Part shown: one piece after another, positions 1,221-29,023 of the stretch
How positions within the stretch are numbered: the stretch's first letter is position 1
Layout: every line of letters begins with the position of its first letter
From: an uncultured bacterium
Lineage (GTDB): Bacteria; Patescibacteriota; Minisyncoccia; Phycocordibacterales; UBA11359
Direction of reading: 5' to 3'
Assembly (NCBI GenBank): GCA_903831815.1
Contig: CAIKZC010000010.1
Span: forward strand, 14,914-78,913
Length of the DNA stretch: 64,000 nucleotides
Translations under genes and position numbers: made by a program
The notes under the pieces: model-generated
The model's database searches: none
Told to the model about the DNA's origin: nothing
The model's input: the letters and a program-made list of their open reading frames with translations, nothing else

Positions 1221-1224
1221 TAAC

Positions 1225-1256: not shown

Positions 1257-1257
1257 T

Positions 1258-9045: not shown

Positions 9046-10673
9046 GTTAACTTTTTACGTCTCAAAAGGGCTTCAAAACCGTCTTTTCCCTTGAAATCTA
9101 CTAGCTTTTTGTTGTTAAAGGTAAGTTCGGTAAACATCATTGCTGCAATATCCCTTTTTTCATTATCAAGAGCGAATTTATAGTACAGGCTCGCACGTTT
9201 GATGAGTTCGGAAAAAGTTGTTACGTATTTGAGCATTTCTTGTGCGGCTTCGCCGTATGCTCCGGCTTTCTGTCTGATCTCATTTAGTTGTCCCATCAGC
9301 CTGTTCTCCTCGGTTTTGGCATCTTCAATGCTCATTGAGTTCGTCCTTAGAAGGGTAATACGATTTTTAGTTAGATAATCCAGATCCGCATAGACTCGCT
9401 TCTCTTGATTGTGAAGATCGTCGAGCTCTTTGTTGCGTTTTATGGTAATCGCATCTATACCTGAGCGTGCTTTGACCTCAAGTTCTCGCAATTCTTCATC
9501 ATCGAAATGCATGCGGTCCATTAGCGACTGTATACTCGCGTGGATATCGCTCTCTTTTAGATTTCTATCTGGGTTATTGCACGTTGCAGCACATCGCAGT
9601 CGATAGTAGCCGATACCCTTTCTTATATAATGACAATATGCACGGCCGCAAGTGCATCGAATCAGTTTTCTGTAAGTTGCGAACTTTTTATTGACGTAAT
9701 ATACCGATACACAACGCGCCTTCAGAACCTCTTGAACCTTATTAAAGAGACTAGTATCTATGAGTGGTTGATGCGCGGTTGAGATTATGAAGCCCTCTTT
9801 TGTTCTGTTCTGGCCTATATAAAATGGGTTAGTTAATATGTGCTCGATCGTTTTGTGTGTCACAGGTCTTGAAATCTTAGGCATCGTTTCGAGTTCTATA
9901 TTGGATAAAATCTGGTCCTCTGTTCTTTTGCCGCGAGAAGGTTTTGTCGTCAGCCCTTGTTCGTTGGCCCATTTACTCAACTCGAGTACACTCCAATCGC
10001 CTGTGGCGTACAATTCAAATATACGCTTTACAATAGGTGCTCGTACTGGGTCTATTGGTTTGTCACCTGATCCATTATCGAGATAGCCGGTAGGAGAGCA
10101 GTTAATGAACTTGCCCTCGGCTCGTAATTTTCTGTTTGTGTTTCTTACTTTTTCACTGATAACTCTAGAGTAGTGGGTAGAGAACATGCCATCGATGTCC
10201 ATGTGTAAGTCACCGGAGCTACTTTTTTCGTAAGTTGTTTCGGAAAATCTAATGTCGCAACCCAGCTTAAGTAACTTTTTGATGATTACGTCATCTTGCC
10301 CGTTGCGACTCGCTCGGTCCCAACATAGGAATATGGCCCCTTTTATTTCTTTATTCTTGAGCATTCCAACAAGTCGCAGAAACTTTGGTCTTTCGATTTT
10401 ATATTGGACAGTGCCGTTCGGCATAATTTCAAAACATTCATCTTCCTTGAAACCGGAATGTCTTTCATTGATAATCCCAGCATTGCAGAAGTTTGGTATT
10501 GTCAGATCGGCTATATTTAATTTTTCTCTTTTTGCGAATCGTAAGTTTGCACCCCTCTGATATTCCAAAGAATTTTTTTGGTTGTCGGCGTCATCTGTAC
10601 TCTTACGGTCGTACACGATGTGCATGTCCCTGAAAGGACTTGATGTTTGTTTTATCTGGTTCTGATTTTTCAT
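8982..10673 (-). CDS. Large serine recombinase/integrase (563 aa); 3' end reads through tRNA-Glu on the opposite strand
   Basis: N-terminal resolvase catalytic domain with YDRKST catalytic-serine context; recombinase domain, Cys-rich zinc-ribbon region (CTCGRAYCH...C) and coiled coil; last ~21 codons are the antisense of the tRNA. Confidence 0.75.
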   Translation of the reverse strand: MKNQNQIKQTSSPFRDMHIVYDRKSTDDADNQKNSLEYQRGANLRFAKREKLNIADLTIPNFCNAGIINERHSGFKEDECFEIMPNGTVQYKIERPKFLRLVGMLKNKEIKGAIFLCWDRASRNGQDDVIIKKLLKLGCDIRFSETTYEKSSSGDLHMDIDGMFSTHYSRVISEKVRNTNRKLRAEGKFINCSPTGYLDNGSGDKPIDPVRAPIVKRIFELYATGDWSVLELSKWANEQGLTTKPSRGKRTEDQILSNIELETMPKISRPVTHKTIEHILTNPFYIGQNRTKEGFIISTAHQPLIDTSLFNKVQEVLKARCVSVYYVNKKFATYRKLIRCTCGRAYCHYIRKGIGYYRLRCAATCNNPDRNLKESDIHASIQSLMDRMHFDDEELRELEVKARSGIDAITIKRNKELDDLHNQEKRVYADLDYLTKNRITLLRTNSMSIEDAKTEENRLMGQLNEIRQKAGAYGEAAQEMLKYVTTFSELIKRASLYYKFALDNEKRDIAAMMFTELTFNNKKLVDFKGKDGFEALLRRKKLTGDSTGNRTPIPALKRPCPNR

Positions 10674-16374: not shown

Positions 16375-17256
16375 ATGAAGATGATTATAGCGGTATTAGT
16401 TGTGATGTTTGTTTGTGCTGGCAACGTAATGGCTGGGGCATGGACCACCATTAACATACCTGGCGGCGGCACAAACTTGTTTGGGGTCAGTGGAAATAAC
16501 ATGGTTGGTAGTTCCTCTCGAGGTGGTTCATTCTACGATGGAACAAGCTGGGCTACCATTAACTATCCTGGGGCATCGAGTGCGGTCCCGTACGCGATCA
16601 GTGGCAACACTATCGTGGGTGAATACCGCGGAGGTACCCACAGTGGTCCTGGTAAGCAGGGCTATGGTTTCATCTATGACGGAACAAATTGGACCACCGT
16701 GGATGCCCCTGGACCAAACTACACAATTTTGTGCGGTATTTCTGGGAACAACATTGTTGGTCAGTACACCGATGCCTCTGACAACAATCACGGTTATTTC
16801 TACAATGGAACAAGTTGGGCGACCCTGGACTATCCTGGGGCAGGCGCAACATACCTACAAGGCATTTCCGGCACAAACATCGTTGGTTGGGAAGAAGGTG
16901 CTCCTGATGGTGACAACGCCTTTCTGTATGATGGAACGACGTGGAAAACTCTTGATATGCCCGGGGTGAATAGCTGGAGCATAGTTCCACGTGGCATTGA
17001 CGGCAGCAACATCGTTGGTTACTACAGCGCTCCAGACGCCACGCATGGTTTTCTCTACGACGGGACGACCTGGACCACACTTGATTACCCTGGGGCATTG
17101 GATACGATGGTGTATGGCATATCCGGTGGCGACATCGTTGGTGAGTATACTGACAACTCGGGGAACTATGGGTTTCTCTATACTGTTCCCGAACCAGCAA
17201 CACTTGGGCTGCTCAGTTTCGGTTTTCTGGCTCTGGTGCGCAGGCGACGGCGCTGA
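16375..17256 (+). CDS. Secreted repeat protein with a C-terminal PEP-CTERM sorting signal
   Basis: Signal peptide; about 7 repeats of a ~30-aa motif (Y/F)DGT(S/T)W(A/T)T(I/L)(D/N)YPGA...GISG.NIVG; C-terminus VPEPATLGLLSFGFLALVRRRRR-stop is a textbook PEP-CTERM (PEP, TM helix, Arg cluster); GC markedly above its surroundings. Confidence 0.7.
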   Translation: MKMIIAVLVVMFVCAGNVMAGAWTTINIPGGGTNLFGVSGNNMVGSSSRGGSFYDGTSWATINYPGASSAVPYAISGNTIVGEYRGGTHSGPGKQGYGFIYDGTNWTTVDAPGPNYTILCGISGNNIVGQYTDASDNNHGYFYNGTSWATLDYPGAGATYLQGISGTNIVGWEEGAPDGDNAFLYDGTTWKTLDMPGVNSWSIVPRGIDGSNIVGYYSAPDATHGFLYDGTTWTTLDYPGALDTMVYGISGGDIVGEYTDNSGNYGFLYTVPEPATLGLLSFGFLALVRRRRR

Positions 17257-17697: not shown

Positions 17698-18331
17698 GAT
17701 AATTACGATTATCGTTAATCTGCTGATTTTGAGCCACAAAAGCGTTGTGAGTTTTTATGTTCACTTCGAGTTGGGGTTGTTTCAATTGCCTTAAAGCCGT
17801 CATCATTGAAAGGAAGTTTCTGTATGATCTGTCGGCTTGTTTACTAAAGAAAGCGCCACATCTTGTTGAGGCGTCATCTACTTCTTCAACACAATTTAGA
17901 AAATCATTGAGTCGCTTCTGATCATTAATCACTTGTACATGAGCGAGCGCAACAAGCTCGGCTGTGGCTTTCTCAAGAGCAGTGGTGCATTTATAATCTT
18001 TTTCGATTTGTTGGACCACATTTAAGACTAGTGGCGCATATTTTTTACTGACGGAGTGTCTGAGATGGTAGTGATTTTCTAAACCTAAAGCCATCACAAA
18101 CTGATCGGATTGTTCCTGAAGATACTTTTTTGCTTCATCTTTTCCTTTTTTACTACCATCTTTCAGTTTCTGTAAGACGCCAGATATTTCACGAAACAAG
18201 TATTCAGGGTCACATCCGGCATGCATGCTATCACGCACAAACTGTTTGCTTTCCTCGGTGGTAGGGGGTTTTGATAAGGCCTTTGTGGTGTGGTTTTCAT
18301 TTTTATTTTGTATTTTGTTTGATATTGACAT
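17675..18331 (-). CDS. Hypothetical protein
   Basis: 218-aa ORF, charged/helical, no recognisable family. Confidence 0.35.
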   Translation of the reverse strand: MSISNKIQNKNENHTTKALSKPPTTEESKQFVRDSMHAGCDPEYLFREISGVLQKLKDGSKKGKDEAKKYLQEQSDQFVMALGLENHYHLRHSVSKKYAPLVLNVVQQIEKDYKCTTALEKATAELVALAHVQVINDQKRLNDFLNCVEEVDDASTRCGAFFSKQADRSYRNFLSMMTALRQLKQPQLEVNIKTHNAFVAQNQQINDNRNYHENIQPK

Positions 18332-18444
18332 GCATTTATCGTGATATACTGTGTTTTGTTAAGTCGTTTATGCCGCGGATGTTAGCTGCTTATTGCTAAG
18401 TGTGAGTTTGTCCAGGAACTTTAGACGGCTGAGTTTATCCATGC

Positions 18445-19983
18445 TTATTTTGATCGCAGGGTATATATTATAAAGTTCGGTAAATAGGTAAACAGGGTCA
18501 CCATTGTTGATGGGTCTCGCAAATATTCTTGATATATGCTGTAAATAGGCGTTAGTTTTGTGGTTCCAAATTTCTCCCCAGAAAAAGGCAGATTTTCTGC
18601 AAAGATTAAATTTTGGAACCGTAGTCTTTTCTCCGGTTTCTTCTCTAGCTTGCGCCAAGTCTCGGCAGTTTTTCTGATGAAGCTAAAACAATACTCTAAG
18701 GCCTCGTCCATATTGAATTCTTCAACTCGTTTGTCGTGAATTTGAGATTCTTTCAGAGCGATTTTTCTGTTTACGTTATCTTTCTGCATTATGAACTCCT
18801 CTTTGGTGTAGGTGTTGGATTCTAGAAGTTCAAATACACGTTGTCGTTGTTGCTCCAGTACTTTTATCTCTTTTCTGATCTGTGCGTTCTGCTCGTCGAA
18901 GTTTTTAAAATTGTTTTTCCAAATATCTAGGACGATAGCTTTGAAGGCTTTTTCATATTGCATGCTTGGATTGATTTCGTTTAGGTGTTCGACGAACATC
19001 TGCTCAAATGATTCTTTAGGAATGAATTTAGCGTGTTCACATTTCTGCTTGTGGTGGTGATAGTATGGGTACCTCTTGCCCGCTTGTCCGGTTGAGTGGC
19101 TACCAGTTAGAGGTTCGTGGCAAAATTGACATACGGCCAATTTCCTTAAGGGGAAAGAGCTGTTGTGTGTCAGGTGTGGCGAGTTCTTGTGTTTGCGACC
19201 GGATTCTTGGCAGAGGTAGAAAAGATTTTCGTCTACGATTGGTTCAAATGAGCCTTTGCTATCAATGTCCCAAACTCGGATAATTCCGCAATAGAGAGGG
19301 TTCTTGATGATTTTCTCAACAAGCTGAGGGATAGCGGTATTGCCTTGTCTGGTGACGAAACCACGCTTGTTTAAGAAGGTTGCCAGAGAGATATAGGTGT
19401 AAGTACCTTTTGAATATTCTTGAAATGCCATTTTGATATAGGGAGCATACTTTGGATCGGGTACGAGGTTGCCGGCTTTTTCGGTTCGACAATATCCGAG
19501 TGGTGCTTGCCAGACCCAGATACCTTGCTTGATTCTTTCTCGCATACCGTTGACGCTTCTTTCTGTTCTTACGTTGTTATCAAATTCAGCAAAACCGGAG
19601 AGCATGACTTCCATGAGTTTGCCGGATGGAGTGTCATCTATTTTTTCAGAAACGGAACGAATTTCGGTGCCGTAATTTTTGAGTTTTTGTTTGACGATGG
19701 CATAGTCAGTTTGGTTGCGGGAAAATCTATCGATTTTGTAGACGATAAAATAGGCAACTTTATTTTTCTTGTTGGAGCAAAGTGAAATGGCTTTGATGAA
19801 TTCAGTACGATCAGCAGTTTTTGCAGACTCGCCACGTTCGATATAAATCTGGAGGATGTTTACATTTTCTCGTTTAGCATATTCCTTGCACATACGCTCT
19901 TGAGATTCCAAACTGGTGCCGTCAACTTGTTCGAGTGAAGAGACTCGACAATATATTATTCCATTTTTGAGTTCGTTATTCAT
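18445..19983 (-). CDS. Large serine recombinase (512 aa), paralogue of the 26322..27860 recombinase
   Basis: YCRVSSLEQ catalytic-serine motif, resolvase domain, recombinase domain, Cys/His-rich zinc module (CQFCHEPL...YYHHHKQKCEH), C-terminal coiled coil. Confidence 0.75.
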   Translation of the reverse strand: MNNELKNGIIYCRVSSLEQVDGTSLESQERMCKEYAKRENVNILQIYIERGESAKTADRTEFIKAISLCSNKKNKVAYFIVYKIDRFSRNQTDYAIVKQKLKNYGTEIRSVSEKIDDTPSGKLMEVMLSGFAEFDNNVRTERSVNGMRERIKQGIWVWQAPLGYCRTEKAGNLVPDPKYAPYIKMAFQEYSKGTYTYISLATFLNKRGFVTRQGNTAIPQLVEKIIKNPLYCGIIRVWDIDSKGSFEPIVDENLFYLCQESGRKHKNSPHLTHNSSFPLRKLAVCQFCHEPLTGSHSTGQAGKRYPYYHHHKQKCEHAKFIPKESFEQMFVEHLNEINPSMQYEKAFKAIVLDIWKNNFKNFDEQNAQIRKEIKVLEQQRQRVFELLESNTYTKEEFIMQKDNVNRKIALKESQIHDKRVEEFNMDEALEYCFSFIRKTAETWRKLEKKPEKRLRFQNLIFAENLPFSGEKFGTTKLTPIYSIYQEYLRDPSTMVTLFTYLPNFIIYTLRSK

Positions 19984-19993
19984 GGCAGTAGTT

Positions 19994-20179
19994 TTACATA
20001 TCCAAATTTAGAAGTCTATCCACCCCAAGGGGATTATTGGAACCACATTTGTCCTCAATGAAACATTCAATGGCTAGTTGGGCTTGGCCATATAGTAAAT
20101 TACGAATTTTCGTTAATTCTTCGTCAGATTTTTCTTGCAAGGCCGGCTCTATTCTTTTGAGTTCATCGAGGGAGATCAT
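19994..20179 (-). CDS. Hypothetical small protein (overlaps the Rep gene by 4 nt: ATGA)
   Basis: 61-aa ORF translationally coupled to the upstream rep. Confidence 0.3.
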   Translation of the reverse strand: MISLDELKRIEPALQEKSDEELTKIRNLLYGQAQLAIECFIEDKCGSNNPLGVDRLLNLDM

Positions 20180-20982
20180 AGCAGTTCGCGAAGGTTGGGC
20201 AGGATGTCAAAAATCGACTGCTTTTTGCCAAGATTGTATTGTTTGTAGCCGACTGTTCCATTGTAAGAGCTTTCAAAATCTTTTTCTTTGGTGAGAAATT
20301 TTTGTGGTATCAGTTTAGAAATTCTGGTAGCTTTAATATGATCTTTGATCACGATAGGCCTGTGGAGGTAACGACTCGGAAAATATCTTTTTAATCCATC
20401 TAGTCGGCTGTCCGCTAAATTCTTGGACATATATTTTGAAATATACGCACCTACATTATTCACGTTTTCAATCGCTTTGATTTTGATATGACCGTATCGC
20501 CAGAGTTCAGCCAAAGTTTCTTTCTTGATGAATTTCAGATTGAAGAAAATAGTGTGATAGTGAATCGCTCCACGTTTTTGGAATTCAATGACCACGACAT
20601 ATTTGAGTAGATTGTTTTCGTCTACCGCATAATTAAGACGTTTAATAAAATTAGAAAATATTTTATTCGCTTCTTTTATGTTTTGGATATTTTCTTTAAA
20701 AGTAAAAGTAACGAAAACCGGAGGGTAGGGAACGGCATCTTTTTTGAACCATTGCCAAGCATTGGTGTTGACCAGTCTTCGCAAGATTGAATTTGTACGA
20801 TGAAGTGATCGTTGTTGAGATTCCGCTTTGCGCTGTTTGCTGGCTTCATCAGTCACCACAATTCTGGATCGAGTACGGCTTTGTTCGGGTACGGTAAAAT
20901 CATAGGACAGTGGTTTGTCGTCATAGCTGTATTCCTCAATAGTGGAACCAGAAAATATTAGTTTTTTCTTAGTTAATTTCAT
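20176..20982 (-). CDS. HUH rolling-circle replication initiator (two-tyrosine, phiX174 gpA/Microviridae VP4-like or plasmid Rep-like)
   Basis: Metal-binding HUH motif AIHYHTIFF and catalytic motif GAYISKYMSK (Y-x-x-K-Y); start taken at the internal Met MKLTKKK (track start 21063 would translate the upstream GC hairpin). Confidence 0.55.
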   Translation of the reverse strand: MKLTKKKLIFSGSTIEEYSYDDKPLSYDFTVPEQSRTRSRIVVTDEASKQRKAESQQRSLHRTNSILRRLVNTNAWQWFKKDAVPYPPVFVTFTFKENIQNIKEANKIFSNFIKRLNYAVDENNLLKYVVVIEFQKRGAIHYHTIFFNLKFIKKETLAELWRYGHIKIKAIENVNNVGAYISKYMSKNLADSRLDGLKRYFPSRYLHRPIVIKDHIKATRISKLIPQKFLTKEKDFESSYNGTVGYKQYNLGKKQSIFDILPNLRELL

Positions 20983-21034
20983 CCCTTTATGTGTGACTAT
21001 AATCAAGTCCAACCGGACTTCGCTTCGCTCGTCC

Positions 21035-21061
21035 GCCCGCCCCGCATAAGCGGGGGCGGGC
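21035..21061. promoter_or_regulatory. GC-rich hairpin immediately upstream of the Rep gene: candidate rolling-circle origin (nick-site stem-loop) or regulatory structure
   Basis: GCCCGCCCCGC-ATAA-GCGGGGGCGGGC: ~11-bp nearly pure-GC stem with one bulge in otherwise AT-rich DNA, ~50 nt upstream of the preferred Rep start. Confidence 0.4.
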
Positions 21062-21154
21062 ACCCGACAGCGATAGCAAAAAGACCATGATGTATTGTCA
21101 TGGCCAAGTATAAATAACGACTTAGAGAAAACTTTTCTAGAAATTCGGTAAAGT

Positions 21155-21895
21155 TTATAGAACCCTTAAATATTCTGGGTTAATTCGCACTTTTCCGGAT
21201 ATGGTAGAGTTAAAAATTAGAAATTGTTTGATCTTGTTGTCGGTCGCTTCTCGCACTTTTTCGTTGATGGCTTTGCAGGCAGAGTGATAGCGTTTCCAGT
21301 TATCTTTGTCTTTGGTGTATAGCTCCTTATTTTCGCCAAATTCCTCTCTGGCTATTTCAGCGTAATAGAACTCGTCTTTCAGATTATCTTCGTGATCAAT
21401 GAAAATATTTTTTAGAATTTTGTGTTCGTTGGTTACCTTGTCTTGTCTGGCGATTTTGATCTCGTGTTCACCAATTCGCAAGATACTTTCTGCTTCATTA
21501 AATTCCGGTGTTCTTATTATCTCTTTTGGTTCAATACCTCGCTTATACCGCTCCAGTACTTTATATATTGAATCGGCGACAATGACGTAGAATATTGGAA
21601 TTCGTATTACTCCGTTTACCGTATTATCTACGTCAAAATCGTCTACGTTAGGGTCGAACTTGGCCGGATCGCGAACGGTTTCAATAATTATGCAACCTTT
21701 TTGCTCTAAATATTCAAGAGCTGAACAAAAACCGTATCGGTTCATATTGAGCGGTTCGATATCTTCGCCATATATATCGATGGTAGGTGGTTCATCCTCC
21801 GATGTATGAAGATACCTAGCAGATATCTCAAATTCTTTGAGTTTGAAGACTAATAGCTCTAGTGTTTTGATGATTTCTTGGTCGAAATTGTCCAT
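21155..21895 (-). CDS. Hypothetical protein
   Basis: 246-aa acidic ORF, no recognisable family. Confidence 0.35.
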   Translation of the reverse strand: MDNFDQEIIKTLELLVFKLKEFEISARYLHTSEDEPPTIDIYGEDIEPLNMNRYGFCSALEYLEQKGCIIIETVRDPAKFDPNVDDFDVDNTVNGVIRIPIFYVIVADSIYKVLERYKRGIEPKEIIRTPEFNEAESILRIGEHEIKIARQDKVTNEHKILKNIFIDHEDNLKDEFYYAEIAREEFGENKELYTKDKDNWKRYHSACKAINEKVREATDNKIKQFLIFNSTISGKVRINPEYLRVL

Positions 21896-21970
21896 GGTTT
21901 TTATGCGGGTATATTAGCACTTTTTAGACTTGAAGTAATGGAGTTATGAACAGGCAAATGACCGGTTAGT

Positions 21971-21991
21971 AATATCCAAACTTTGGATATT
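21971..21991. promoter_or_regulatory. Perfect 21-bp palindrome AATATCCAAA-C-TTTGGATATT upstream of an XRE regulator (candidate operator)
   Basis: Dyad symmetry in the divergent promoter region ~30 nt upstream of the XRE start. Confidence 0.5.
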
Positions 21992-22019
21992 GAATATTTA
22001 GATAGACCATAGTAGTATT

Positions 22020-22241
22020 ATGACAAGGTCTATAAGAACAAGGGAATATGCTTATTTTGTCGAGCGATTAAGAAAAGCTCGTGAAGAGGCGGGATTAACT
22101 CAGGTGGAGGTTGCTAGGAAGTTAAAACGTCCGCAGTCGCATATTTCTAATGTGGAATCCGGACAGCAAAGGGTTGATGTTGTCGAACTTCAAAACTTTG
22201 CGAAGATCTATAATAAGGAAATAGGGTATTTTATTAAATAA
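22020..22241 (+). CDS. XRE-family HTH transcriptional regulator
   Basis: GLTQVEVARKLKRPQSHISNVESGQQRVDVVELQNFAKIY Cro/C1-type HTH. Confidence 0.8.
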   Translation: MTRSIRTREYAYFVERLRKAREEAGLTQVEVARKLKRPQSHISNVESGQQRVDVVELQNFAKIYNKEIGYFIK

Positions 22242-22247
22242 AAATTT

Positions 22248-22757
22248 ATGTTTTGTAAACATTGTGGGACTAGCTTGGAAGAAGGAGTGAAGTTTTGTGG
22301 TAAGTGTGGAGGAAAAAATGCAGATGCCGTTGCTCTTGCAGAATCTTCTTTTGTAATACAGGAAGGTTTTTTTGAGCGTATTTCCACGGGCAGACTCGGC
22401 AGACGAAATTATTTCTTTGGCTTATTGTACACAATTTTGCCGATTCCTATTTTGGTTACGTTTTGGGGGTTGATTAGTTTTCTTCTGGGTCAAGAGTCTC
22501 CGATCTTCTCATTTTTTAGCATGATAATCCCGCTTCTTATTGGTCTTGCTGTATTATGGTTCCTAGCCTCTCTTCCTGTGTCTATCTGCATAACAATTAG
22601 ACGTTGTCATGATTTCGGTTTGAGTGGGTGGTTTGTTCTATTAGGAGGCATAATAATGTTAATTGCATTATTTCCAGGTAGTAACAAAGGCTTAAATGAA
22701 TACGGTAAACCGCCGGTGAAAGGCAGGAAATTTTTATCTGATATTTTTAATAAATAA
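22248..22757 (+). CDS. Zinc-ribbon domain membrane protein with DUF805-like 4-TM region
   Basis: N-terminal MFCKHCG...KFCGKCG double CxxC zinc ribbon, then a DUF805-like hydrophobic core (YFFGLLYTILPIPILVTFW...). Confidence 0.6.
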   Translation: MFCKHCGTSLEEGVKFCGKCGGKNADAVALAESSFVIQEGFFERISTGRLGRRNYFFGLLYTILPIPILVTFWGLISFLLGQESPIFSFFSMIIPLLIGLAVLWFLASLPVSICITIRRCHDFGLSGWFVLLGGIIMLIALFPGSNKGLNEYGKPPVKGRKFLSDIFNK

Positions 22758-22762
22758 AAACC

Positions 22763-23896
22763 ATGTTTTGTAAAAATTGTGGGAACAAGATTAAAGATGA
22801 AGAAAAGTTTTGTTCATCTTGCGGAGTTGGAGCTGGGCAAGTTGGTAAAAGTGATCTGCCGGCAGATTCTGTTAAAAAGGAAGTAAGAGCAATAATTAAG
22901 TGTGGGAATTGCGCCTACATTGGTCCTGGAGAGCCAGCAAGAAGCATTGCCGGCATAATCCTAGCTTGGCTATGTGTTTTGTTCGCTCCGATAATCACAA
23001 TTATATATTTTGCGGCAACCCACAAATATAGGTGTCCAAAATGTAAGTCTACGTTTCTTGGTGTCAAAAACAGAGAAGGCAATTTTGTTGGTCAAAGTGG
23101 TGCTGGGCGAGTCGTTATTGTGATTGTTTTTCTACTTGTCGGTATTGCTGTTATGGGTATTTTATCTGCTATTGTTTTAGCATCATTAAATAGTGCACGC
23201 ACGAAAGCTAAAGATGCTCAAATTCAGGCAGGTCTTAGTAGTATGCGAGCGGCTGCCGAGATTTATTATTCAAAAAATTTAGAATCTTATTCAGTAGCTT
23301 CCGACTGTAATCATGGGATGTTTGCTTCCAGTGATCTTTCCGATCTTGTTTCTAACGTTCAGGAAAAAGGTACCAACGTAAAATGTTACGCAAATGGTGA
23401 CAGTTGGGCTGCTTCCTCTGTACTAACTAATTCAACGGGCGATAGTTGGTGTGTTGATAGTACTGGCAAAAGTCAAAATGGGACGGCTACAGAGAGTAAC
23501 TTGAAAGCTTTTTGTTCTAAAGATATTTCTTCAAATAGTTCAGTTGAAGATTCAAGTGATTCTATGACTAACGAAGAATATGTTAAACAAGTAGTTGTTG
23601 AAGCAAAAAAACAACTAACTCTCCCAAAAAAGACTGATGAAAATACGACTTTGACGGATATTGTCGCTGAACAATCAACCTTGCGTTATAAGTACACTCT
23701 GCAAGGGTTAGACCTAAGTGATTATACCGACAGTTCATTTAATAAAAAAATGAAGCCTTTGCTGGCCGATGATCTGTGTAAAAATGATAGTCTGACTGGT
23801 TTTCTGAATAGAGGCATAGATGTAAAGTATTCATATTTAGATTTAGAAACATACAAAAGTTATCTCATAACCTTTACTAAGGGTGATTGTTTATAA
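22763..23896 (+). CDS. Zinc-ribbon domain membrane protein fused to a type IV pilin-like N-terminal helix and a ~240-aa extracellular domain
   Basis: MFCKNCG...KFCSSCG zinc ribbon; TM; segment ILSAIVLASLNSARTKAKDAQIQAGLSSMRAAAEIYY resembles the pilin/pseudopilin N-terminal helix; Ser/Thr/Cys-containing C-terminal domain. Confidence 0.55.
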   Translation: MFCKNCGNKIKDEEKFCSSCGVGAGQVGKSDLPADSVKKEVRAIIKCGNCAYIGPGEPARSIAGIILAWLCVLFAPIITIIYFAATHKYRCPKCKSTFLGVKNREGNFVGQSGAGRVVIVIVFLLVGIAVMGILSAIVLASLNSARTKAKDAQIQAGLSSMRAAAEIYYSKNLESYSVASDCNHGMFASSDLSDLVSNVQEKGTNVKCYANGDSWAASSVLTNSTGDSWCVDSTGKSQNGTATESNLKAFCSKDISSNSSVEDSSDSMTNEEYVKQVVVEAKKQLTLPKKTDENTTLTDIVAEQSTLRYKYTLQGLDLSDYTDSSFNKKMKPLLADDLCKNDSLTGFLNRGIDVKYSYLDLETYKSYLITFTKGDCL

Positions 23897-23901
23897 AATA
23901 T

Positions 23902-24132
23902 ATGCACTGCACAAATTGTGGGAACAAAAATGATCCTGATACAAAATTCTGTGGTAAATGCGGAGCTGAGCATATCGTGAAAGACACAGACTCAAAAATA
24001 AATTTTGTATCTAATTCTACTTGGGCTACTCAAACAACAGGTGTCAAAATTGCAATATACATAGTACTTGCATTTGCTGGTCTAATACTTGTTTCTATGA
24101 TTCTTTTGTATATTCCTTCTTTTTGGCGTTAA
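23902..24132 (+). CDS. Small zinc-ribbon protein with C-terminal TM anchor
   Basis: MHCTNCG...KFCGKCG zinc ribbon, then IAIYIVLAFAGLILVSMILLYI. Confidence 0.5.
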   Translation: MHCTNCGNKNDPDTKFCGKCGAEHIVKDTDSKINFVSNSTWATQTTGVKIAIYIVLAFAGLILVSMILLYIPSFWR

Positions 24133-24326
24133 TGGCGGTCTATCCTGTAGAGAAATTTGTAAGATAAGCCTAAATTAAACGGCTTACTTATGTGTGGCTA
24201 TTCGCAAGTTGTGGATATCCAACAGCTTGACTTTTGTAGCCCCATGGAGTAAGATACTAAGTGAAAGTCACCTGCGCCAGCGAAAGCTGTGTGCAGGTTT
24301 TCGTTATGGGGTGTATAATACAGGCC

Positions 24327-25004
24327 ATGGAACGAATCTGTATACATATTGATGGGGGTAATTTCTACCATTTAGTCCTCAAAAAACTCGGTCTAAAAGA
24401 GAAAGATTTTGACTTTGATAAGTTCACTCAATTTCTCGCCGGAGAGAAAAGGACTATATCTGAAATGGGTAAACGATACTATGTGGGTACAGTAAGAGAA
24501 AAAGTTGGTGACGAGAGAAGTAAAATATCGATGGCTTTGCAAACCTCACTTTTTGCACGACTGAAATCTACTAAATGGGAAATAAAAACAAGCAAATTAA
24601 GGACGAGGATCGAAGAAATTGTTATTGACCAGAGAGTACAAGATTTTAAAAAACTGCAGAAATTGGGAATCAAATCTATTGTATTTGAAAGACAGCGAGA
24701 GAAGGGTATTGATGTAAAACTGGCTACTGATCTGATTGTCGGAGCAATAGATAACAAATATGATACAGCTATAGTAGTTAGTTCGGATGGTGATCTTATT
24801 CCAGCAATTGATTGGGTACGAAATAGATTTAAGAAGAAAATAGAATACGTCGGCTTTTCTATTGCAGATCCAAAAAATCCAAAAAATTCTACTAGACCGT
24901 TGCTTTCGATGATACCAAAAACAGATATTCAACGTACTTTGACAGCAGAGGACTTAAAGCCGTTTATCATTCGATTACCGTTAACCGATGGGGAGGTTGG
25001 CTAA
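24327..25004 (+). CDS. NYN-domain (LabA-like, PF01936) protein
   Basis: IHIDGGNFYH ... GIDVKLATDLI ... YDTAIVVSSDGDLIPAIDWV; a TATAAT hexamer sits 10 nt upstream of the ATG, so the mRNA is possibly leaderless. Confidence 0.7.
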   Translation: MERICIHIDGGNFYHLVLKKLGLKEKDFDFDKFTQFLAGEKRTISEMGKRYYVGTVREKVGDERSKISMALQTSLFARLKSTKWEIKTSKLRTRIEEIVIDQRVQDFKKLQKLGIKSIVFERQREKGIDVKLATDLIVGAIDNKYDTAIVVSSDGDLIPAIDWVRNRFKKKIEYVGFSIADPKNPKNSTRPLLSMIPKTDIQRTLTAEDLKPFIIRLPLTDGEVG

Positions 25005-25013
25005 AATCTATAT

Positions 25014-25667
25014 ATGCATAATATAATATTCAGACACTTTTCGGAGAAAAATACTTCCAATGTTGGTTCAATTGTTGATTGGATAACTATTCTCACATTT
25101 ATTACAACAATCGTTATTTTCTTAATTGATAGTTATTTCAATCGAAGACAAGAACATGAAAAGTGTTTGAATAGATTACTGTCTTTGAAATTTGAGCTTC
25201 AAAAAAATACGAATATAATAAATAAGTTTATCAACGAAATTGAAAAACAGTTATTAAGCGGGAGTAAAGTGGTTTATTACAGGTACGACACTTTGGTAAC
25301 GGAGTCTCTTATTTCAAGTGGAGAAATATTGGACTCGGATTTTCTTAGAAACCTTGATGCAATTTTAGGTGAAGAAAAACAAATAAACAGGCTTTTGGAC
25401 AGCATTGAAAAAATGGCAGATATGTCGCACGTAGATTCTGGTGACATTGCAAATTTGTTTAAAAATAGAATAACCACTGCTTCAAATTTGGTTGTATCAA
25501 TAAACAAAAATTTGACCAAATATTATCCAAAGGTAATCGATGGATTAGGTTCATATATTAGAAAAACAGAGGCAAAGAAATTTTTGGGCGTAAAGGCTTT
25601 TAATGTTTGTACTAATGAAAAGGAGATTAAAGAGGAGTTTTGGAAGGAGAAATATCAAATTTTATAG
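25014..25667 (+). CDS. Hypothetical protein with N-terminal TM helix
   Basis: 217 aa, TM ITILTFITTIVIFLI followed by a helical cytoplasmic domain. Confidence 0.4.
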   Translation: MHNIIFRHFSEKNTSNVGSIVDWITILTFITTIVIFLIDSYFNRRQEHEKCLNRLLSLKFELQKNTNIINKFINEIEKQLLSGSKVVYYRYDTLVTESLISSGEILDSDFLRNLDAILGEEKQINRLLDSIEKMADMSHVDSGDIANLFKNRITTASNLVVSINKNLTKYYPKVIDGLGSYIRKTEAKKFLGVKAFNVCTNEKEIKEEFWKEKYQIL

Positions 25668-25693
25668 CCACGATACCCTTAAACTCCTGGTGT

Positions 25694-25743
25694 GCCCTTA
25701 TATTCCCACAAACTTGGTCCCAATTCCATTTAACGAGGGTCAC
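25694..25743. repeat. Direct repeat copy 1 (50 bp, 45/50 identical to 26286..26335) flanking the NUDIX gene
   Basis: GCCCTTATATTCCCACAAACTTGGTCCCAATTCCATTTAACGAGGGTCAC. Confidence 0.6.
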
Positions 25744-25791
25744 TCGTGAACATCGTGAATGTTGTGAACATCTCTGGTACAATCATCTGAT

Positions 25792-26247
25792 ATGGATAAA
25801 AAGATTATTATTCGATGCAGAGCTATTATTCTCCACAAAGGAAAATTGTTGGTTGTTAAACATTCACCGGAAAATACTTTTTATGTGTTGCCTGGAGGCC
25901 ACTTTGAATGGGGCGAGGAGGTGAAGGAGTGTATGAGTCGTGAATTGGAGGAAGAGCTTGGCATAAAAGGTGATGTGGGGAGATTGTTTTATGTAAACAA
26001 TTTTGTGTGCGACGATACGGATTATATAAGTAAGGGTACACAATCTATTGAATTTTTCTTTGAAATAAAAAACTCTGCTGATTATGCAAATATGAACAAA
26101 CCAACTGGTTCGCATGCCGATGAGATCTATGAACTCAGATGGGTTAGCAAAGACGATGATGTGAATATTATGCCACTAAGTATTAGTAAAGATTTAAGAG
26201 ATGGTGAGCTTGGGTCTGAATCGCCCCGCTTCATTAGAAGTCAATAA
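25792..26247 (+). CDS. NUDIX hydrolase
   Basis: Nudix box GGHFEWGEEVKECMSRELEEELGI. Confidence 0.8.
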   Translation: MDKKIIIRCRAIILHKGKLLVVKHSPENTFYVLPGGHFEWGEEVKECMSRELEEELGIKGDVGRLFYVNNFVCDDTDYISKGTQSIEFFFEIKNSADYANMNKPTGSHADEIYELRWVSKDDDVNIMPLSISKDLRDGELGSESPRFIRSQ

Positions 26248-26285
26248 ATGGGTGTTACCTGACTAAAGCACTTAATTCCTGAAAA

Positions 26286-26335
26286 GCCCTTATATTTCCA
26301 CAAAGTTGGTTCCAATTCCATCTAACGTGGGTCAC
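26286..26335. repeat. Direct repeat copy 2 (matches 25694..25743); its GGGTCAC end abuts the left inverted repeat of the recombinase element
   Basis: GCCCTTATATTTCCACAAAGTTGGTTCCAATTCCATCTAACGTGGGTCAC. Confidence 0.6.
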
Positions 26336-27860
26336 ATTCAGATACTTCGGCAGTGGTGAGCGTAAAATGGGAGCGCGCCGCAGGCGCGCTGTAGGGTGAG
26401 AGGGAGGATTTCCCCTTGCGGGTGCGGACGAAAATGGAGGGCGGGCAAAATGAGATTGAGATAGTTTTGTCTTTTAGCGCGGGGTTCGTTCCAAAAGAGC
26501 GGAGAAAATCTCTCATCTCATGGAGATTTTCGCCCGTTGCCAGAAACCCCGCGCGTTTTGAATCCAAAATCCATTTCCGCAGGGGTTCGACCCAATTCTT
26601 TCTCTCGGCTCGGGCAGATGAAGATTTTGCTTGAAGCGAAAGTTTTTGACGCATGAGTGCGTCTTTTTTGGTCAAATATATCTCGCGCTCAATATCTTGG
26701 TTTAAGTACAAATCAACAAGTGCGTCTAACTTCGCTTCAAGAGTCTTCAAATCTTCCTTCATCTGCCCGAGACGATTTCCCGAAGCGTTGATTTCATCGT
26801 GCTCAAATTCTCCAACTTTTTTGAGCATATAATCTGCCCACGCTTCGGGAAACGACACTGATTGAAGCTGTTCCTTTATTTGGAGAGCGAGCGCACCTTC
26901 CTGCAAATATCCCTGACTACATTTTCCTTTCTTTTTCGTGCAACGATAATAGCGATACCTCCCGCCCATTTTTCCAGTACACCATTGAGCAGTAATCATA
27001 GAGTCACATTCGCCGCAACGAAAAAGACCGGTGAAAGGAAAATTGTGGGATATTTTGCTATGCCTCGGATGCGCTCGCTCCTCCAATCTTTTCTGTACAG
27101 CTTCAAACAGGGTCGGAGAAAGAATCGGTGCAAAGCTTCCGGGAAAAAATTCCCCATGATGTTTGGTGAAGCCGAGATACGCTCGATTGGTCAATATTCT
27201 TTTCACGGAAGCTTTGCCAAGTGGCGTTCCGGACTTTTGTGCTACACCGTGGAGAGCCAAAAACTGCGACAACGAAACTAGGGTATGTGAACCTTTTACA
27301 TATTCTTCATATGCTCGAACAATGATTTTAGATTTCACTGGATCAGGCTCTATGTTACGCGTAACGGGATTGTTCACATACCCGAATGGAGCCCGAGTCA
27401 ACCACTCTCCTCGTCGCAGTTTTTGGCGCATACCTCGCTCAACGTTTTGCTTTAAGTTGTCAGAATAATACTTACTTTGTCCGAACGCCACTTGAAGCAT
27501 AAAGAGACCATGCGGAGTTGGCTCAAACCAAAATGTCGGAAAGCGCAAAGAGACTATTTTAGAAGTGTCGACGGCATAAATGATGCGTCCACCGTCAATG
27601 CTGTTTCTGGCTAGACGGTCGGGGTGCCAGGCGAGAATTCCAACATTACCGACTTTCTCAATTTTAAGCATCATTTTGCCGAACACTTCTCTTCCGGGGC
27701 TCTTGGCGCTTTTCGACTCTTGAAATTCCTCAAGGATTTCAAGATTTTCTCTGCTCGCAAATTCACGAAGTTCTACAAGCTGGGCAGGAATGCTCATGAC
27801 TTGCTTGTCGTCATCTTCAGTACTCTTGCGAGCATAGAGAAAATATTTTGGTTTGTTCAT
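26322..27860 (-). CDS. Large serine recombinase (512 aa) of the IS-like element
   Basis: YARKSTEDDD catalytic-serine motif; resolvase + recombinase domains; zinc ribbon CGECDSM...YYRCTKKKGKC; coiled coil; last ~45 codons lie inside the left inverted repeat. Confidence 0.75.
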   Translation of the reverse strand: MNKPKYFLYARKSTEDDDKQVMSIPAQLVELREFASRENLEILEEFQESKSAKSPGREVFGKMMLKIEKVGNVGILAWHPDRLARNSIDGGRIIYAVDTSKIVSLRFPTFWFEPTPHGLFMLQVAFGQSKYYSDNLKQNVERGMRQKLRRGEWLTRAPFGYVNNPVTRNIEPDPVKSKIIVRAYEEYVKGSHTLVSLSQFLALHGVAQKSGTPLGKASVKRILTNRAYLGFTKHHGEFFPGSFAPILSPTLFEAVQKRLEERAHPRHSKISHNFPFTGLFRCGECDSMITAQWCTGKMGGRYRYYRCTKKKGKCSQGYLQEGALALQIKEQLQSVSFPEAWADYMLKKVGEFEHDEINASGNRLGQMKEDLKTLEAKLDALVDLYLNQDIEREIYLTKKDALMRQKLSLQAKSSSARAERKNWVEPLRKWILDSKRAGFLATGENLHEMRDFLRSFGTNPALKDKTISISFCPPSIFVRTRKGKSSLSPYSAPAARSHFTLTTAEVSECDPR

Positions 27861-28021
27861 ATATATGTTTTGGATTCAAAAAAGGAAACTATCTCAATCT
27901 CATTTTGCCCGCCCTCCATTTTCGTCCGCACCCGCAAGGGGAAATCCTCCCTCTCACCCTACAGCGCGCCTGCGGCGCGCTCCCATTTTACGCTCACCCC
28001 TGCCGAAGTATCTGAATGTGA
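26333..28021. mobile_element. Compact IS-like element: one large serine recombinase gene bounded by ~135-bp near-perfect terminal inverted repeats
   Basis: Reverse complement of 26333..26467 matches 27886..28021 almost perfectly (1-2 mismatches seen by eye); the repeats are far more GC-rich than flanking DNA, carry an internal palindrome GCGCGCCGCAGGCGCGC, and enclose only the recombinase. Confidence 0.65.
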
Positions 28022-28070
28022 TCTAATTGTATCCTTTGGAAAAAAGTTCGTGCAAAGGATACAATTAGAT
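28021..28070. terminator. Perfect 18-bp-stem hairpin (ATCTAATTGTATCCTTTG...CAAAGGATACAATTAGAT) abutting the right element end; likely terminator of the downstream minus-strand methyltransferase gene and/or insertion target
   Basis: Perfect inverted repeat with 14-nt loop, located between IRR and the stop of 28091..29023. Confidence 0.45.
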
Positions 28071-28090
28071 CACCGCGTCATTTTATTTTT

Positions 28091-29023
28091 CTATTTTACC
28101 AAAGCATATACAATGCCCGGTTTTTCTATGATGCTGTAATTTTTGTTATATTTTAATATCAATTCCCTTATTTTCTCTCCGTCACCCTTATTGTGATATG
28201 TGCAGATTGAAAGTTTCGGCGCAAATTTTTCGAGAGTGATTTTGGCGCCCTCAAGAGCTTTTAATTCCGCTCCTTCAATGTCCATTTTAATAAAATCAAT
28301 TTGAGATAATTTTTCTTTTATTACAAAATCATCGATCGTGGTCATGTTTTCATGAGTTTGAACTCCGCAAAAAAGCGGGACAATGGTAATTCGCGTACCA
28401 TTCAATTCTTTGATTAATTCTATTGGTCTGGCGTTTATTGGATCAGGTTCAAATGCAAAAACATTCTTCGCACCTTTAGCCGAACAAACTGCGGAAAAAT
28501 CGCCGGGTCCGGCACCAATATCAAAAACGACGTCACCTGGCTTGATGTTCACTTCATCAAAAAAATACGTAAAACCGTGGGCTACGAGATGCGAGTATTT
28601 AAAACCTGGTTCAATTCTGCCAATATTGTCTTTCCAATATATTAGTCTGGAATATTCTTTTTTTAGTGAAGAATAAAAGACTTCGTTTTGTTGATCGTTG
28701 TAAATGAATTTTTCGGCGTGCGGAATTAAAACATTGAACATTGAATCCGCGATCACTTTGAAAGGGATTTTAATGCCGGCAAAATCATAATATTCTCCAT
28801 TCTTGTATTTATGCCAAATTTTATTGAATTTGCGACAATTTCGATCGTATTCAACATAATCTTTTACACCATTTATGATGTTTTTTGGATCAACTTTTAA
28901 AATATGTATGATTCTCTTGATCCATCGATAGCTGGGGCTGGGTAAATAGTATAAAAAATGAAGAACTTTGGATTTGGCCAATTTCGGACGAATTTTATTT
29001 AGAAATTTCTTTAATGAATGCAT
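28091..29023 (-). CDS. FkbM-family methyltransferase
   Basis: DIGAGPGDFS SAM-binding motif and MDIEGAELKALEGAKITLEKFAPKLSICTYH. Confidence 0.65.
   Translation of the reverse strand: MHSLKKFLNKIRPKLAKSKVLHFLYYLPSPSYRWIKRIIHILKVDPKNIINGVKDYVEYDRNCRKFNKIWHKYKNGEYYDFAGIKIPFKVIADSMFNVLIPHAEKFIYNDQQNEVFYSSLKKEYSRLIYWKDNIGRIEPGFKYSHLVAHGFTYFFDEVNIKPGDVVFDIGAGPGDFSAVCSAKGAKNVFAFEPDPINARPIELIKELNGTRITIVPLFCGVQTHENMTTIDDFVIKEKLSQIDFIKMDIEGAELKALEGAKITLEKFAPKLSICTYHNKGDGEKIRELILKYNKNYSIIEKPGIVYALVK

Follow-up and report, generated by a model that had tools for sequence, protein, structure and literature searches.

The four consecutive genes at 22020-24132 of the 64,000-nt stretch of DNA analysed here (the window) are tentatively explained as autoregulated cargo, organised as one operon, of an integrative element of the large-serine-recombinase type in a Patescibacteria genome. 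Their products would alter the cell envelope, probably in or around the type IV pilus/DNA-uptake surface. The 377-aa product of the third gene is related to pilins by both fold and sequence profile. The XRE regulator encoded by the first gene and its palindromic operator are the conserved head of a widespread family of serine-recombinase elements and are not specific to the three membrane protein genes that follow them in the window. Type IV pili are central to DNA uptake, movement and host attachment of the ultra-small Patescibacteria, and many unexplained pilin-like genes are found in their genomes.

Operon layout, palindrome and XRE regulator

The features of the operon and of the element backbone, which is divergent from it, are listed below.

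18445..21895, minus strand: element backbone (recombinase, Rep and two further ORFs)
18445..19983, minus strand: large serine recombinase (Resolvase, Recombinase and Zn_ribbon_recom)
19994..20179, minus strand: 61-aa ORF
20176..21063, minus strand: rolling-circle Rep (PF23343 REP_ORF2-G2P, E 3.4e-24)
21155..21895, minus strand: 246-aa ORF without assigned function
21971..21991, no strand: candidate operator, perfect 10+1+10 palindrome AATATCCAAACTTTGGATATT, unique in the window and conserved at fixed spacing elsewhere
21990..22019, plus strand: promoter-like stretch, read from the sequence, with putative hexamer roles
22020..22241, plus strand: XRE-family HTH regulator of 73 aa, HTH domain only (HTH_31 45 bits, E 1.1e-11; HTH_3 44 bits, E 2.3e-11)
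22248..22757, plus strand: 169-aa protein, zinc ribbon (aa 1-22) and polytopic DUF805 membrane domain (PF13240 27.8 bits; PF05656 52.8 bits)
22763..23896, plus strand: 377-aa four-module protein (PF13240 26.4 bits)
23902..24132, plus strand: 76-aa tail-anchored protein, zinc ribbon and C-terminal membrane anchor (PF13240 31 bits)

The perfect 21-bp palindrome, the XRE gene and three tightly packed genes that each start with a zinc ribbon had been reported in a preliminary description of this DNA and were all confirmed in the sequence. The intergenic gaps across the four-gene run are 6, 5 and 5 nt, and all three ribbons score above the PF13240 cut-off of 25 bits. The DUF805 fusion named there also held, with a PF05656 score well above the cut-off of 25.7 bits, a match over profile positions 5-111 of 111 and hydrophobic stretches over aa 54-147, as did the assignment of just a C-terminal anchor to the last protein, which has a single hydrophobic stretch (aa 44-76) and is predicted to expose nearly nothing outside the cell. 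The length of 76 aa is counted from the ATG; an upstream TTG start would give 81 aa. The starts of the first and second zinc-ribbon genes are alike over 72 nt at 71% identity, and this likeness includes upstream DNA, which suggests duplication. No terminator-like site was found inside the operon by the promoter/terminator scan, no Rfam match was obtained in 18000-29000, and the three zinc-ribbon proteins were without match in PADLOC. PHROGs placed them in one zinc-ribbon family without assigned function and two families labelled just as membrane proteins.

The palindrome was matched in none of 100 shuffles and lies 28 nt upstream of the XRE start; in L012, another genome locus, an identical copy precedes the XRE gene by the same number of nucleotides. 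The conserved 19-bp operator core, ATATCCAAA[C/G]TTTGGATAT, was found in 95 metagenome stretches, and 76 core sites (L012 and the window included; 64 distinct upstream regions) lie 46-50 nt upstream of the gene start of an XRE homologue. Moreover, at loci found through the XRE protein alone the core was present with 0-2 mismatches in 4/4 distinct upstream regions. A -35-like hexamer (TTGAAT, 21990-21995) overlaps the end of the palindrome, the following 17-nt spacer carries a third copy of the half-site, TTTAGATA, at 21997-22004, and a -10-like hexamer (TAGTAT, 22013-22018) stands directly before the ATG. The pattern TTGAnnnnTTrGATAGAnnATnnTAnTAT(T)ATG is kept across the 64 upstream regions.

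The regulator is an XRE-family HTH protein with a palindrome in its own promoter region, and the palindrome is conserved together with the gene. Its matches in PHROGs are families annotated as repressors (E ~1e-10), its closest solved structures, 3eus and 3f6w, are XRE-like, and the PADLOC Control_protein models match it weakly (E ~1e-4). XRE relatives form 884 clusters, the best 120 of which are at least 82% identical. As regards the anti-sigma-like role that had been suggested earlier, the neighbouring ORFs scanned gave no sigma domain, the only Sigma70_r4 match being a sub-threshold overlap with the helix-turn-helix of the XRE protein.

According to the explanation favoured here, an XRE dimer would bind the palindrome that overlaps the -35-like hexamer, with a third half-site in the spacer, and would thereby set the level of one transcript covering 22020-24132, as Cro/CI or controller (C) proteins do. 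That the best -10-like hexamer adjoins the ATG counts against this explanation. Chance adjacency or a gene-calling artefact, with a palindrome that is not a binding site, would fit the promoter scan, in which promoter-like sites were no more numerous than in shuffled sequence. ORFs starting with a zinc ribbon, however, number only 3 of the 79 in the window and are all adjacent to one another (chance of being consecutive ~0.001), all domains are supported by HMMs, the palindrome is conserved, with constant spacing, at dozens of independent loci, and the AF2 model of the 377-aa protein is confident (pLDDT 85.6). Since both the gene arrays at genome loci and the operator sites are conserved, such an artefact is already contradicted and extremely improbable.

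The four modules of the 377-aa protein

The protein at 22763..23896 consists of the following modules, all on the plus strand.

22763..22828, plus strand: module 1, N-terminal C4 zinc ribbon, aa 1-22 (PF13240; pLDDT ~91)
22892..23092, plus strand: module 2, LITAF-like split zinc ribbon with a hydrophobic helical hairpin between its halves, aa 44-110 (invariant cysteines; AF2 model)
23105..23512, plus strand: module 3, type IV pilin/pseudopilin fold (fold and sequence profile)
23567..23896, plus strand: module 4, C-terminal alpha/beta domain with the PA3611/T2SS-pilotin (AspS/EpsS) fold, aa 269-377

Among 106 relatives, the module 1 cysteines (C3, C6, C17 and C20) show a conservation of 90% or more. 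Module 3 shows the pilin fold, an extended N-terminal alpha1 helix (aa 115-171, with residues ~115-140 predicted to span the membrane) packed on an antiparallel beta sheet, and its beta-sheet head contains four cysteines. The family profile matched PilA4 (E 8.6e-9), geopilin (E 1.4e-8) and GspG (E 1.9e-6) in the PDB. PF08334 matches 20 of the 106 relatives; no Pfam pilin family matched the window protein. The pilin-like helix that had been noticed earlier (aa 133-169) thus stands as a pilin relation by fold and profile, but the N_methyl signal of a pilin N-terminus is not supported: PF07963 (N_methyl) gave no match in the 377-aa protein at E up to 10, neither a cleavage motif of the G-[FMILV]-[ST]-L-I-E type nor an acidic residue within the 18 positions that lead up to the G-I-L motif is present in any of the 106 relatives, and the column equivalent to Glu5 holds I, C, V, L, A or F. 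Similarly, the region described as an extracellular domain of ~240 aa exists, but it is made up of two domains, the pilin head and the PA3611-like module 4.

These data bear on a rival reading in which the 377-aa protein truly belongs to a type IV or competence pilus machine, whether as a basal membrane subunit that anchors or ends the fibre or as a PilN/PilO-type alignment protein. The complete pilin fold with its GspG/PilA-like alpha1 sequence, the C-terminal fold common to T2SS pilotins and the conservation of the family across many Patescibacteria records would all suit such a part. Both the cleavage site and Glu5 are required for assembly into known fibres, however, and the family has neither; nor is it found in pilus operons, its gene in the window lies on a mobile element, and pilotins act on outer-membrane secretins, which Patescibacteria are not known to have. 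Membership of the pilus machinery is therefore considered quite unlikely.

Module 2 contains a second CxxC...CxxC pair (C47, C50, C91 and C94), which the preliminary description had overlooked. The four cysteines are invariant in the 106 relatives and flank the first hydrophobic segment of the protein. The AF2 model of this module comprises strands (44-55), two helices (62-74 and 76-85) and strands (99-110), and this predicted helix-break-helix hairpin with strands on both sides is consistent with a monotopic insertion. A profile search with module 2 retrieved 135 representatives among 1.84 billion proteins. About 35 small stand-alone proteins were found with the module profile, and with an E limit of 1, PF10601 matches 25 of these 35 (best 1.5e-6); those checked individually scored 21-22 bits, just below the PF10601 cut-off. 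The module aligned with the stand-alone set in hhalign at 98.7% probability. Compared directly with PF10601, the window module scores 8.5 bits (E 3), a non-significant value well below the cut-off of 23.8. At the same E limit of 1, BRI3 (PF10164) matches 26 of the 106 relatives, the best with E 3.5e-4, and a BFVD fold search with module 2 gave weak matches, with an iridovirus LITAF protein at rank 8 (E 0.8).

The topology proposed for the operon products places all three zinc ribbons and the split ribbon on the cytoplasmic side. The hairpin would dip into the inner leaflet without crossing the membrane, alpha1 would cross once, and the pilin head and the end domain would lie outside with four and two cysteines, respectively. 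Since such a protein could be neither cleaved nor extracted from the membrane, it would stay there as an anchored pseudopilin. The predicted design, a protein of pilin fold whose cleavage signal is lost and which two zinc-binding modules keep in the membrane, has not been described before. Literature searches on zinc ribbons with pilins in Patescibacteria/CPR, on LITAF in prokaryotes and on PF13240 returned nothing relevant.

Element, cargo and zinc-ribbon gene arrays

The arrangement of recombinase on the minus and XRE on the plus strand recurs at other loci, where the cargo varies and the whole backbone is inserted between housekeeping genes. Other cargo behind the same XRE and operator includes DUF5667 and large secreted proteins. 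In 40 of 50 non-redundant loci the gene directly behind XRE codes for a membrane or secreted product, compared with 19 of the 49 ORFs that lie in the window but not in the island (Fisher p 3.6e-5). Behind the membrane genes come defence-type genes: NYN (HEC-09, E 5e-17) and NUDIX (PDC-S07, E 7e-12) in the window, HEPN_AbiU2 and SocA_Panacea elsewhere. No match to the 377-aa protein was obtained by tblastn in the phages of GenBank or the plasmids of PLSDB, nor to the palindrome core in IMG/VR, so nothing marks the element as a recognised virus or plasmid.

The pseudopilin family is small, and its named records are mostly from Patescibacteria. Its gene is usually the first in arrays of 2-7 zinc-ribbon membrane genes. 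Co-occurrence in other genomes is conserved: homologues of the 377-aa protein lie in such same-strand arrays at most of 17 genome loci, and the same XRE, the same palindrome and a zinc-ribbon array recur together in L012 and in about 14 metagenome loci. The interpretation first given to these genes is partly supported; the regulator and operator are not tied to the membrane trio.

The surface and pilus interaction listed among the functions first proposed for these genes appears the most plausible of them, and signalling is less likely. For the latter, a transmembrane or anti-sigma-like device has been considered, in which the outer domains sense a cue and the cytoplasmic zinc ribbons bind and release a regulator, possibly XRE itself. 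A regulator gene does sit with membrane proteins that bear cytoplasmic zinc modules, and the tail-anchored 76-aa protein could serve as a tether. Neither the operon nor the genes next to it, however, were found to encode a sigma factor, a kinase or another signalling domain, all ribbons are of the PF13240 type, to our knowledge a plain C4 ribbon and not the HxxxCxxC motif of zinc-dependent anti-sigma factors, and the XRE protein has no partner-binding domain according to Pfam. Moreover, the same XRE and operator head quite different cargo elsewhere, so XRE does not depend on zinc-ribbon partners. The anti-sigma suggestion is accordingly unsupported, and a signalling device in general is very unlikely.

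The three proteins might also be ordinary envelope proteins without a link to pili. The zinc ribbon would then be a generic cytoplasmic cap or oligomerisation tag of membrane proteins with an inside N-terminus, the pilin fold a stalk displaying variable outer domains, and the arrays a product of tandem duplication and domain shuffling that XRE drives here by happenstance. This would be in line with the alikeness of the first two ribbon gene starts and with the C-terminal domains of the family, which vary between FKBP, DUF4352, Fib_succ and PA3611-like. The membrane or outer domains of the array partners are likewise unrelated (DUF805, DUF6804, DUF2569, TPR and 8xMP), which argues against one fixed machine. 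The family gene is also found solitary between housekeeping genes (L007, L014), thus the pseudopilin family is not only element cargo, and no canonical pilin or pilus-machinery gene is present in the window or beside the family gene at the 17 genome loci. The last three findings, together with the lack of PADLOC matches for the zinc-ribbon proteins, also weigh against the favoured explanation. On the other side, next to nothing of the 76-aa protein lies outside, so that its zinc ribbon itself must be the functional end; the split ribbon and pilin helix, with invariant residues and 73% mean column identity, are conserved far beyond the needs of a stalk; and envelope proteins are enriched after XRE, with defence genes adjoining. 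Ordinary envelope proteins are thus a serious but somewhat unlikely alternative.

In prophages and integrative elements, genes for membrane-located exclusion are often situated beside repressor and integrase, as with the lactococcal Sie proteins and mycobacteriophage defence genes. If the operon is autoregulated element cargo as favoured here, its products may alter the host envelope such that incoming DNA or phage is excluded or attachment is changed. A bolder and rather unlikely idea is that Patescibacteria evolved non-extractable "anchor pseudopilins", pilins joined to a LITAF-like monotopic zinc domain, which mobile elements deploy together with small zinc-ribbon membrane partners to cap, poison or re-target the type IV pilus/DNA-uptake apparatus.

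An uncleavable, membrane-held pilin with two cytoplasmic zinc modules would, if real, represent a new use of the pilin fold as an anchor, cap or inhibitor. The LITAF-type membrane-embedded zinc ribbon, so far described from eukaryotes, would then extend to bacteria, and a pilus-directed exclusion mechanism would be without described counterpart. Together, XRE, operator and serine recombinase mark out a family of elements that is very widespread in these bacteria, and its variable slot, enriched in envelope and defence genes, is a practical handle for accessory functions in uncultivated lineages.

Comparison with known systems

The regulator resembles Cro/CI repressors and the controller (C) proteins of restriction-modification systems in being an HTH-only XRE protein of about 75 aa with a palindrome overlapping its own promoter region and in being co-oriented with its putative target genes, whereas operator sequence and cargo differ and restriction-modification genes do not follow it. 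The membrane genes share with those of prophage superinfection-exclusion proteins such as lactococcal Sie the encoding of small membrane proteins between recombinase/regulator and defence-type genes, a likeness of position only, without similarity of sequence or fold. Module 4 is 13-18% identical to PA3611 (PDB 3npd; Pfam QSregVF) and the T2SS pilotins AspS/EpsS; the protein that carries it has no lipoprotein signal, and the PA3611-like domain is present in only a few members of the pseudopilin family.

The LITAF/SIMPLE-like zinc ribbon (PF10601) and BRI3 (PF10164) have been described as eukaryotic monotopic membrane domains (PMC5142333). As in these, two CxxC knuckles of module 2 stand on either side of a ~24-residue hydrophobic stretch, for which a helical hairpin with strands on both sides is predicted, both module ends would share the cytoplasmic side, and the C-terminal motif (K-Y-R-C-P-K-C-x-S-T-F) resembles the H/R-x-C-P-x-C knuckle. 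Unlike them, module 2 is bacterial and fused between a zinc ribbon and a pilin, and its putative link to PF10601 runs through intermediate small proteins that score mostly just below the cut-off.

Type IV pilins such as PilA4 of Thermus and the pseudopilins of T2SS (GspG/PulG/EpsG; PF08334 T2SSG) are related to the 377-aa protein by fold and sequence profile. In contrast to these, the 377-aa family has no class III signal peptide, Gly-1/Phe+1 or Glu5 (0/106), and ~112 cytoplasmic residues with two zinc modules precede the helix; the 377-aa protein is therefore expected in the membrane and not in a fibre.

The operon, its operator and the element family

A perfect 10+1+10 palindrome, AATATCCAAACTTTGGATATT, is located in the 124-nt gap between a 246-aa ORF (start 21895, - strand) and an XRE gene. 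It is present as a single copy in the 64-kb window and had no match in 100 shuffles. Three further genes on the + strand follow the XRE gene with gaps of 6, 5 and 5 nt, and no terminator-like sites were found between the four genes.

21971-21991, palindrome
22020-22241, +, XRE regulator with helix-turn-helix domain (Pfam HTH_31, 45 bits; HTH_3, 44 bits)
22248-22757, +, 169-aa membrane protein with PF13240 zinc ribbon (27.8 bits) and DUF805 (52.8 bits)
22763-23896, +, 377-aa pseudopilin with PF13240 zinc ribbon (26.4 bits)
23902-24132, +, 76-aa membrane protein with PF13240 zinc ribbon (31 bits)

The ribbons are N-terminal in all three membrane proteins (Pfam cut-off 25 bits). Among the 79 ORFs of the window only these three, all adjacent, open with a double CxxC (chance probability ~0.001). 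The palindrome, XRE gene and three consecutive zinc-ribbon genes are present as given in the preliminary description, and Pfam backs the helix-turn-helix, PF13240 and DUF805 assignments; PF07963 (N_methyl), which had also been proposed, gave no Pfam match at any threshold. Over 72 nt, about 20 of them upstream of the genes (TAAATAAAAA..ATG), the starts of the first two zinc-ribbon genes (22227-22298 and 22742-22813) are 71% identical, which fits a tandem duplication that took in both the ribbon module and the region of its translation start.

At the genome locus L012 a near-identical XRE (E 2.8e-41) was found with the identical 21-bp palindrome equally far from its start and three zinc-ribbon genes behind it, adjoining a large serine recombinase. 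An exact search for the 19-nt operator core yielded 95 metagenome stretches and no occurrence in IMG/VR; 76 core sites, L012 and the window included, precede the ATG of an XRE homologue by 46-50 nt and represent 64 distinct upstream sequences. At the centre either C or G occurs, and the conserved downstream pattern TTGAnnnnTTrGATAGAnnATnnTAnTAT(T)ATG holds a third copy of the half-site. Because this search selected for the palindrome, an independent set of three XRE homologues was chosen by protein similarity alone, and the site was in place in all four of their distinct upstream regions (0, 0, 1 and 2 mismatches). An XRE dimer is predicted to bind the palindrome and would thereby set the expression of one transcript spanning the four genes. 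The palindrome shares positions with a -35-like TTGAAT, which a 17-nt spacer separates from TAGTAT; since this -10-like hexamer abuts the ATG, the transcription start is uncertain.

The regulator is conserved and very widespread: its relatives comprise 884 clusters, of which the best 120 show at least 82% identity, and its own 90% cluster contains 163 members. Between housekeeping genes, a large serine recombinase (-), the XRE gene (+) and a few cargo genes form a recurrent layout. Of about 62 loci, about 14 have a zinc-ribbon array as cargo; the others carry large secreted, DUF5667 or small membrane proteins. By a crude test applied equally to both sets, 40 of 50 non-redundant loci have a signal or membrane segment encoded in the first gene after XRE, compared with 19 of 49 window ORFs outside the island (p 3.6e-5). 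Defence-type genes are often located downstream, in other loci HEPN_AbiU2 and SocA_Panacea.

Mobile elements and cargo in the window

Three serine recombinases mark the region of ~9-28 kb, which has a lower G+C content, as a patchwork of integrated elements.

8820-8909, tRNA-Ser
8971-9045, tRNA-Glu
8982-10673, -, large serine recombinase (Resolvase and Recombinase domains)
16375-17256, +, 293-aa protein ending in a PEP-CTERM motif (E 2.4e-6), with four internal repeats at a spacing of 126-255 nt
18445-19983, large serine recombinase, backbone side
20176-21063, -, rolling-circle Rep (PF23343 REP_ORF2-G2P, E 3e-24; PHROGs replication initiation)
24327-25004, NYN protein (PADLOC HEC-09, E 5e-17)
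25682-25743 and 26274-26335, 62-nt direct repeat, 84% identical
25792-26247, NUDIX protein (PADLOC PDC-S07, E 7e-12)
26322-27860, -, large serine recombinase
26332-26475 and 27878-28021, 144-nt inverted repeat, 97% complementary
28018-28038 / 28053-28073, perfect 21-nt hairpin

The backbone side also carries two unknown ORFs. The Rep gene lies between the recombinase at 18445-19983 and XRE; once excised, the element may be replicated in circular form. The recombinase at 8982-10673 overlaps or abuts a tRNA gene, which suggests another integrated element and thus an accessory region extending over ~9-28 kb. With the NYN gene, whose family HEC-09 is a candidate defence family in PADLOC, and the NUDIX gene just downstream of the operon, the cargo region has the appearance of a small defence island.

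The 62-nt repeats flank the NUDIX gene, the second copy overlapping the stop region of the serine recombinase gene at 26322-27860, and may be what is left of the attachment sites of a small cassette. The 144-nt repeat brackets the last recombinase gene, with one arm in its last ~50 codons and the other just upstream of its start. This unit (G+C 0.44-0.47, around it 0.34-0.37), followed by the hairpin, could be IS-like or an invertible segment; Rfam returned nothing at the repeat and hairpin. To our knowledge, a PEP-CTERM/exosortase system is unusual for Patescibacteria.

The pseudopilin, its gene arrays and a proposed role

For the 377-aa protein, 5.8 billion proteins were searched and the 8,000 top candidates scored, which gave at least 107 relatives. 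They are mostly 230-280 aa long, sparsely annotated and cover the first ~63% of the query. The strongest conservation is at residues 44-150, not at the N-terminal ribbon, and comprises in order IIKCGNCxYIGPGExARS, the hydrophobic ILAWLCVxFAPLITIIYFxAT, HKYRCPKCKSTFLGVKNKxGVF, a Gly-rich turn and xIxVGIAxIGILSSVVLASLNSARxKxxDA; C47, C50, C91 and C94 are invariant. The structure prediction proposed in the preliminary description resulted in an AlphaFold2 model with a mean pLDDT of 85.6.

N-terminus, small ribbon, then disordered linker
44-55 and 99-110, beta strands around a helix-break-helix hairpin (62-74, 76-85)
115-171, 57-residue helix
207-240, four-stranded sheet
270-376, alpha/beta domain, preceded by a Ser-rich low-confidence linker

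The predicted topology places residues 1-112 on the inner side, from which the hairpin would dip into the membrane; after a single crossing by the alpha1 helix, residues 141-377 would face outward. The basic residues near the second knuckle fit this arrangement, as does the even count of cysteines on the outer side (182, 208, 230, 251; 339, 376). Processing of a pilin and its extraction into a fibre are enabled by a cleavage motif and an acidic residue. The family lacks both: a G-F-T-L-I-E-like motif occurs in no member, and the 18 residues that precede the G-I-L motif are never acidic. Predicted to be neither cleavable nor extractable, the pseudopilin should stay a membrane-anchored pilin head with a PA3611-like domain; that it is a true basal pilus component, as its pilin fold might suggest, is improbable.

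In 17 genome loci, mostly of Patescibacteria MAGs, the family gene is very often the first of a same-strand run of genes whose products open with a zinc ribbon and continue with membrane segments (run lengths by locus):

L018, 7
L008, 6-7
L009 and L017, ~6
L010, 5
L012 and L013, 3
L005, L006 and L015, 2
L007, L014, L016, L019 and L020, family gene solitary

The array partners are heterogeneous, with ribbons fused to DUF6804, DUF2569, TPR repeats, an 8xMP-like domain or Zn_ribbon_15. The most regular one is a small polytopic zinc-ribbon protein of 127-200 aa, 1-3 genes from the pseudopilin, whose place is taken in the window by the DUF805 protein. The grouping singled out beforehand is therefore conserved across genome loci, and adjacency by chance is very improbable. 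L017 has two copies of the pseudopilin-family gene, each with two small flanking ORFs, in opposite orientations at 619-1596 (-) and 5597-6574 (+) on either side of ~3.5 kb; this region is possibly invertible and would then switch which array is expressed.

The ribbons of the three membrane proteins would be positioned on the cytoplasmic face. Since the 76-aa protein has nothing outside, the ribbon itself may be a working part, perhaps by mutual association, beyond serving as a topology cap. A signalling or anti-sigma device, one of the roles suggested in the preliminary description, would accord with cytoplasmic ribbons next to a regulator, and we consider it slightly less probable still than the basal pilus component. 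Tentatively, and at somewhat below even chance, we favour the view that the element alters the envelope through these proteins, probably at or near the pilus/DNA-uptake surface; the leading specific idea, that incoming DNA or phage is excluded, is held with less confidence. This proposal is based on the position of the operon in a variable slot beside a repressor-type gene and a recombinase, the richness of this slot in envelope proteins and the defence genes nearby. Against it, pilin or pilus-machinery genes were not found in the window or beside the family gene in the 17 genome loci, the zinc-ribbon proteins had no match in the defence database (PADLOC), and members of the family are also found among housekeeping genes. 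Generic envelope scaffolds with no tie to pili are the nearest alternative, somewhat less likely than the favoured reading.

The split ribbon and comparison with known systems

The split ribbon of the 377-aa protein, in which two cysteine pairs enclose a hydrophobic hairpin, has the design of the eukaryotic LITAF/SIMPLE domain; that domain binds zinc and anchors monotopically in the membrane, so that its two ends are both cytosolic (PMC5142333). The direct Pfam match of the split ribbon to PF10601 was not significant (E 3). BRI3 (PF10164), a domain of the same layout, was touched by 26 of 106 relatives (best E 3.5e-4). A 73-column module profile found only 135 proteins among 1.84 billion representatives, 95 of them below 1e-10, so that the fused family is small; its named genome records are mostly Patescibacteria MAGs. 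The tail of this search contained about 35 stand-alone proteins (P0169-P0208), 60-130 aa long, that share the pattern CPNCxYxG-hydrophobic-CPKC. PF10601 was matched by 25 of 35 at E up to 1 (best 1.5e-6), many of them narrowly below the cut-off of 23.8 bits (those checked individually reached 21-22 bits), and hhalign gave 98.7% probability between module and stand-alone set. On this indirect evidence we describe the module as LITAF-like in its design and as a probable distant relative. A viral-structure search with the module gave weak matches. The stand-alone set is scattered, and some of its hairpins match Pmp3 (PF01679). Its occurrence in the genome and metagenome library suggests that these proteins are prokaryotic; if so, they would be seemingly undescribed counterparts of the LITAF domain.

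No literature was found on the fusion, the zinc-ribbon arrays or the XRE-headed element family. The structure and context of the operon are solid, and three features appear to be undescribed: the fusion of zinc ribbon, LITAF-like split ribbon and non-processable pilin, the pseudopilin's habit of heading arrays of zinc-ribbon membrane genes, and the place of XRE plus operator at the front of a family of serine-recombinase elements that is very common in Patescibacteria. Each alone, XRE-plus-palindrome operons, pilin-like proteins and zinc-ribbon membrane proteins are already ordinary, and the proposed action of XRE would resemble that of Cro/CI regulators or of restriction-modification controller proteins, to the latter of which XRE is weakly similar.
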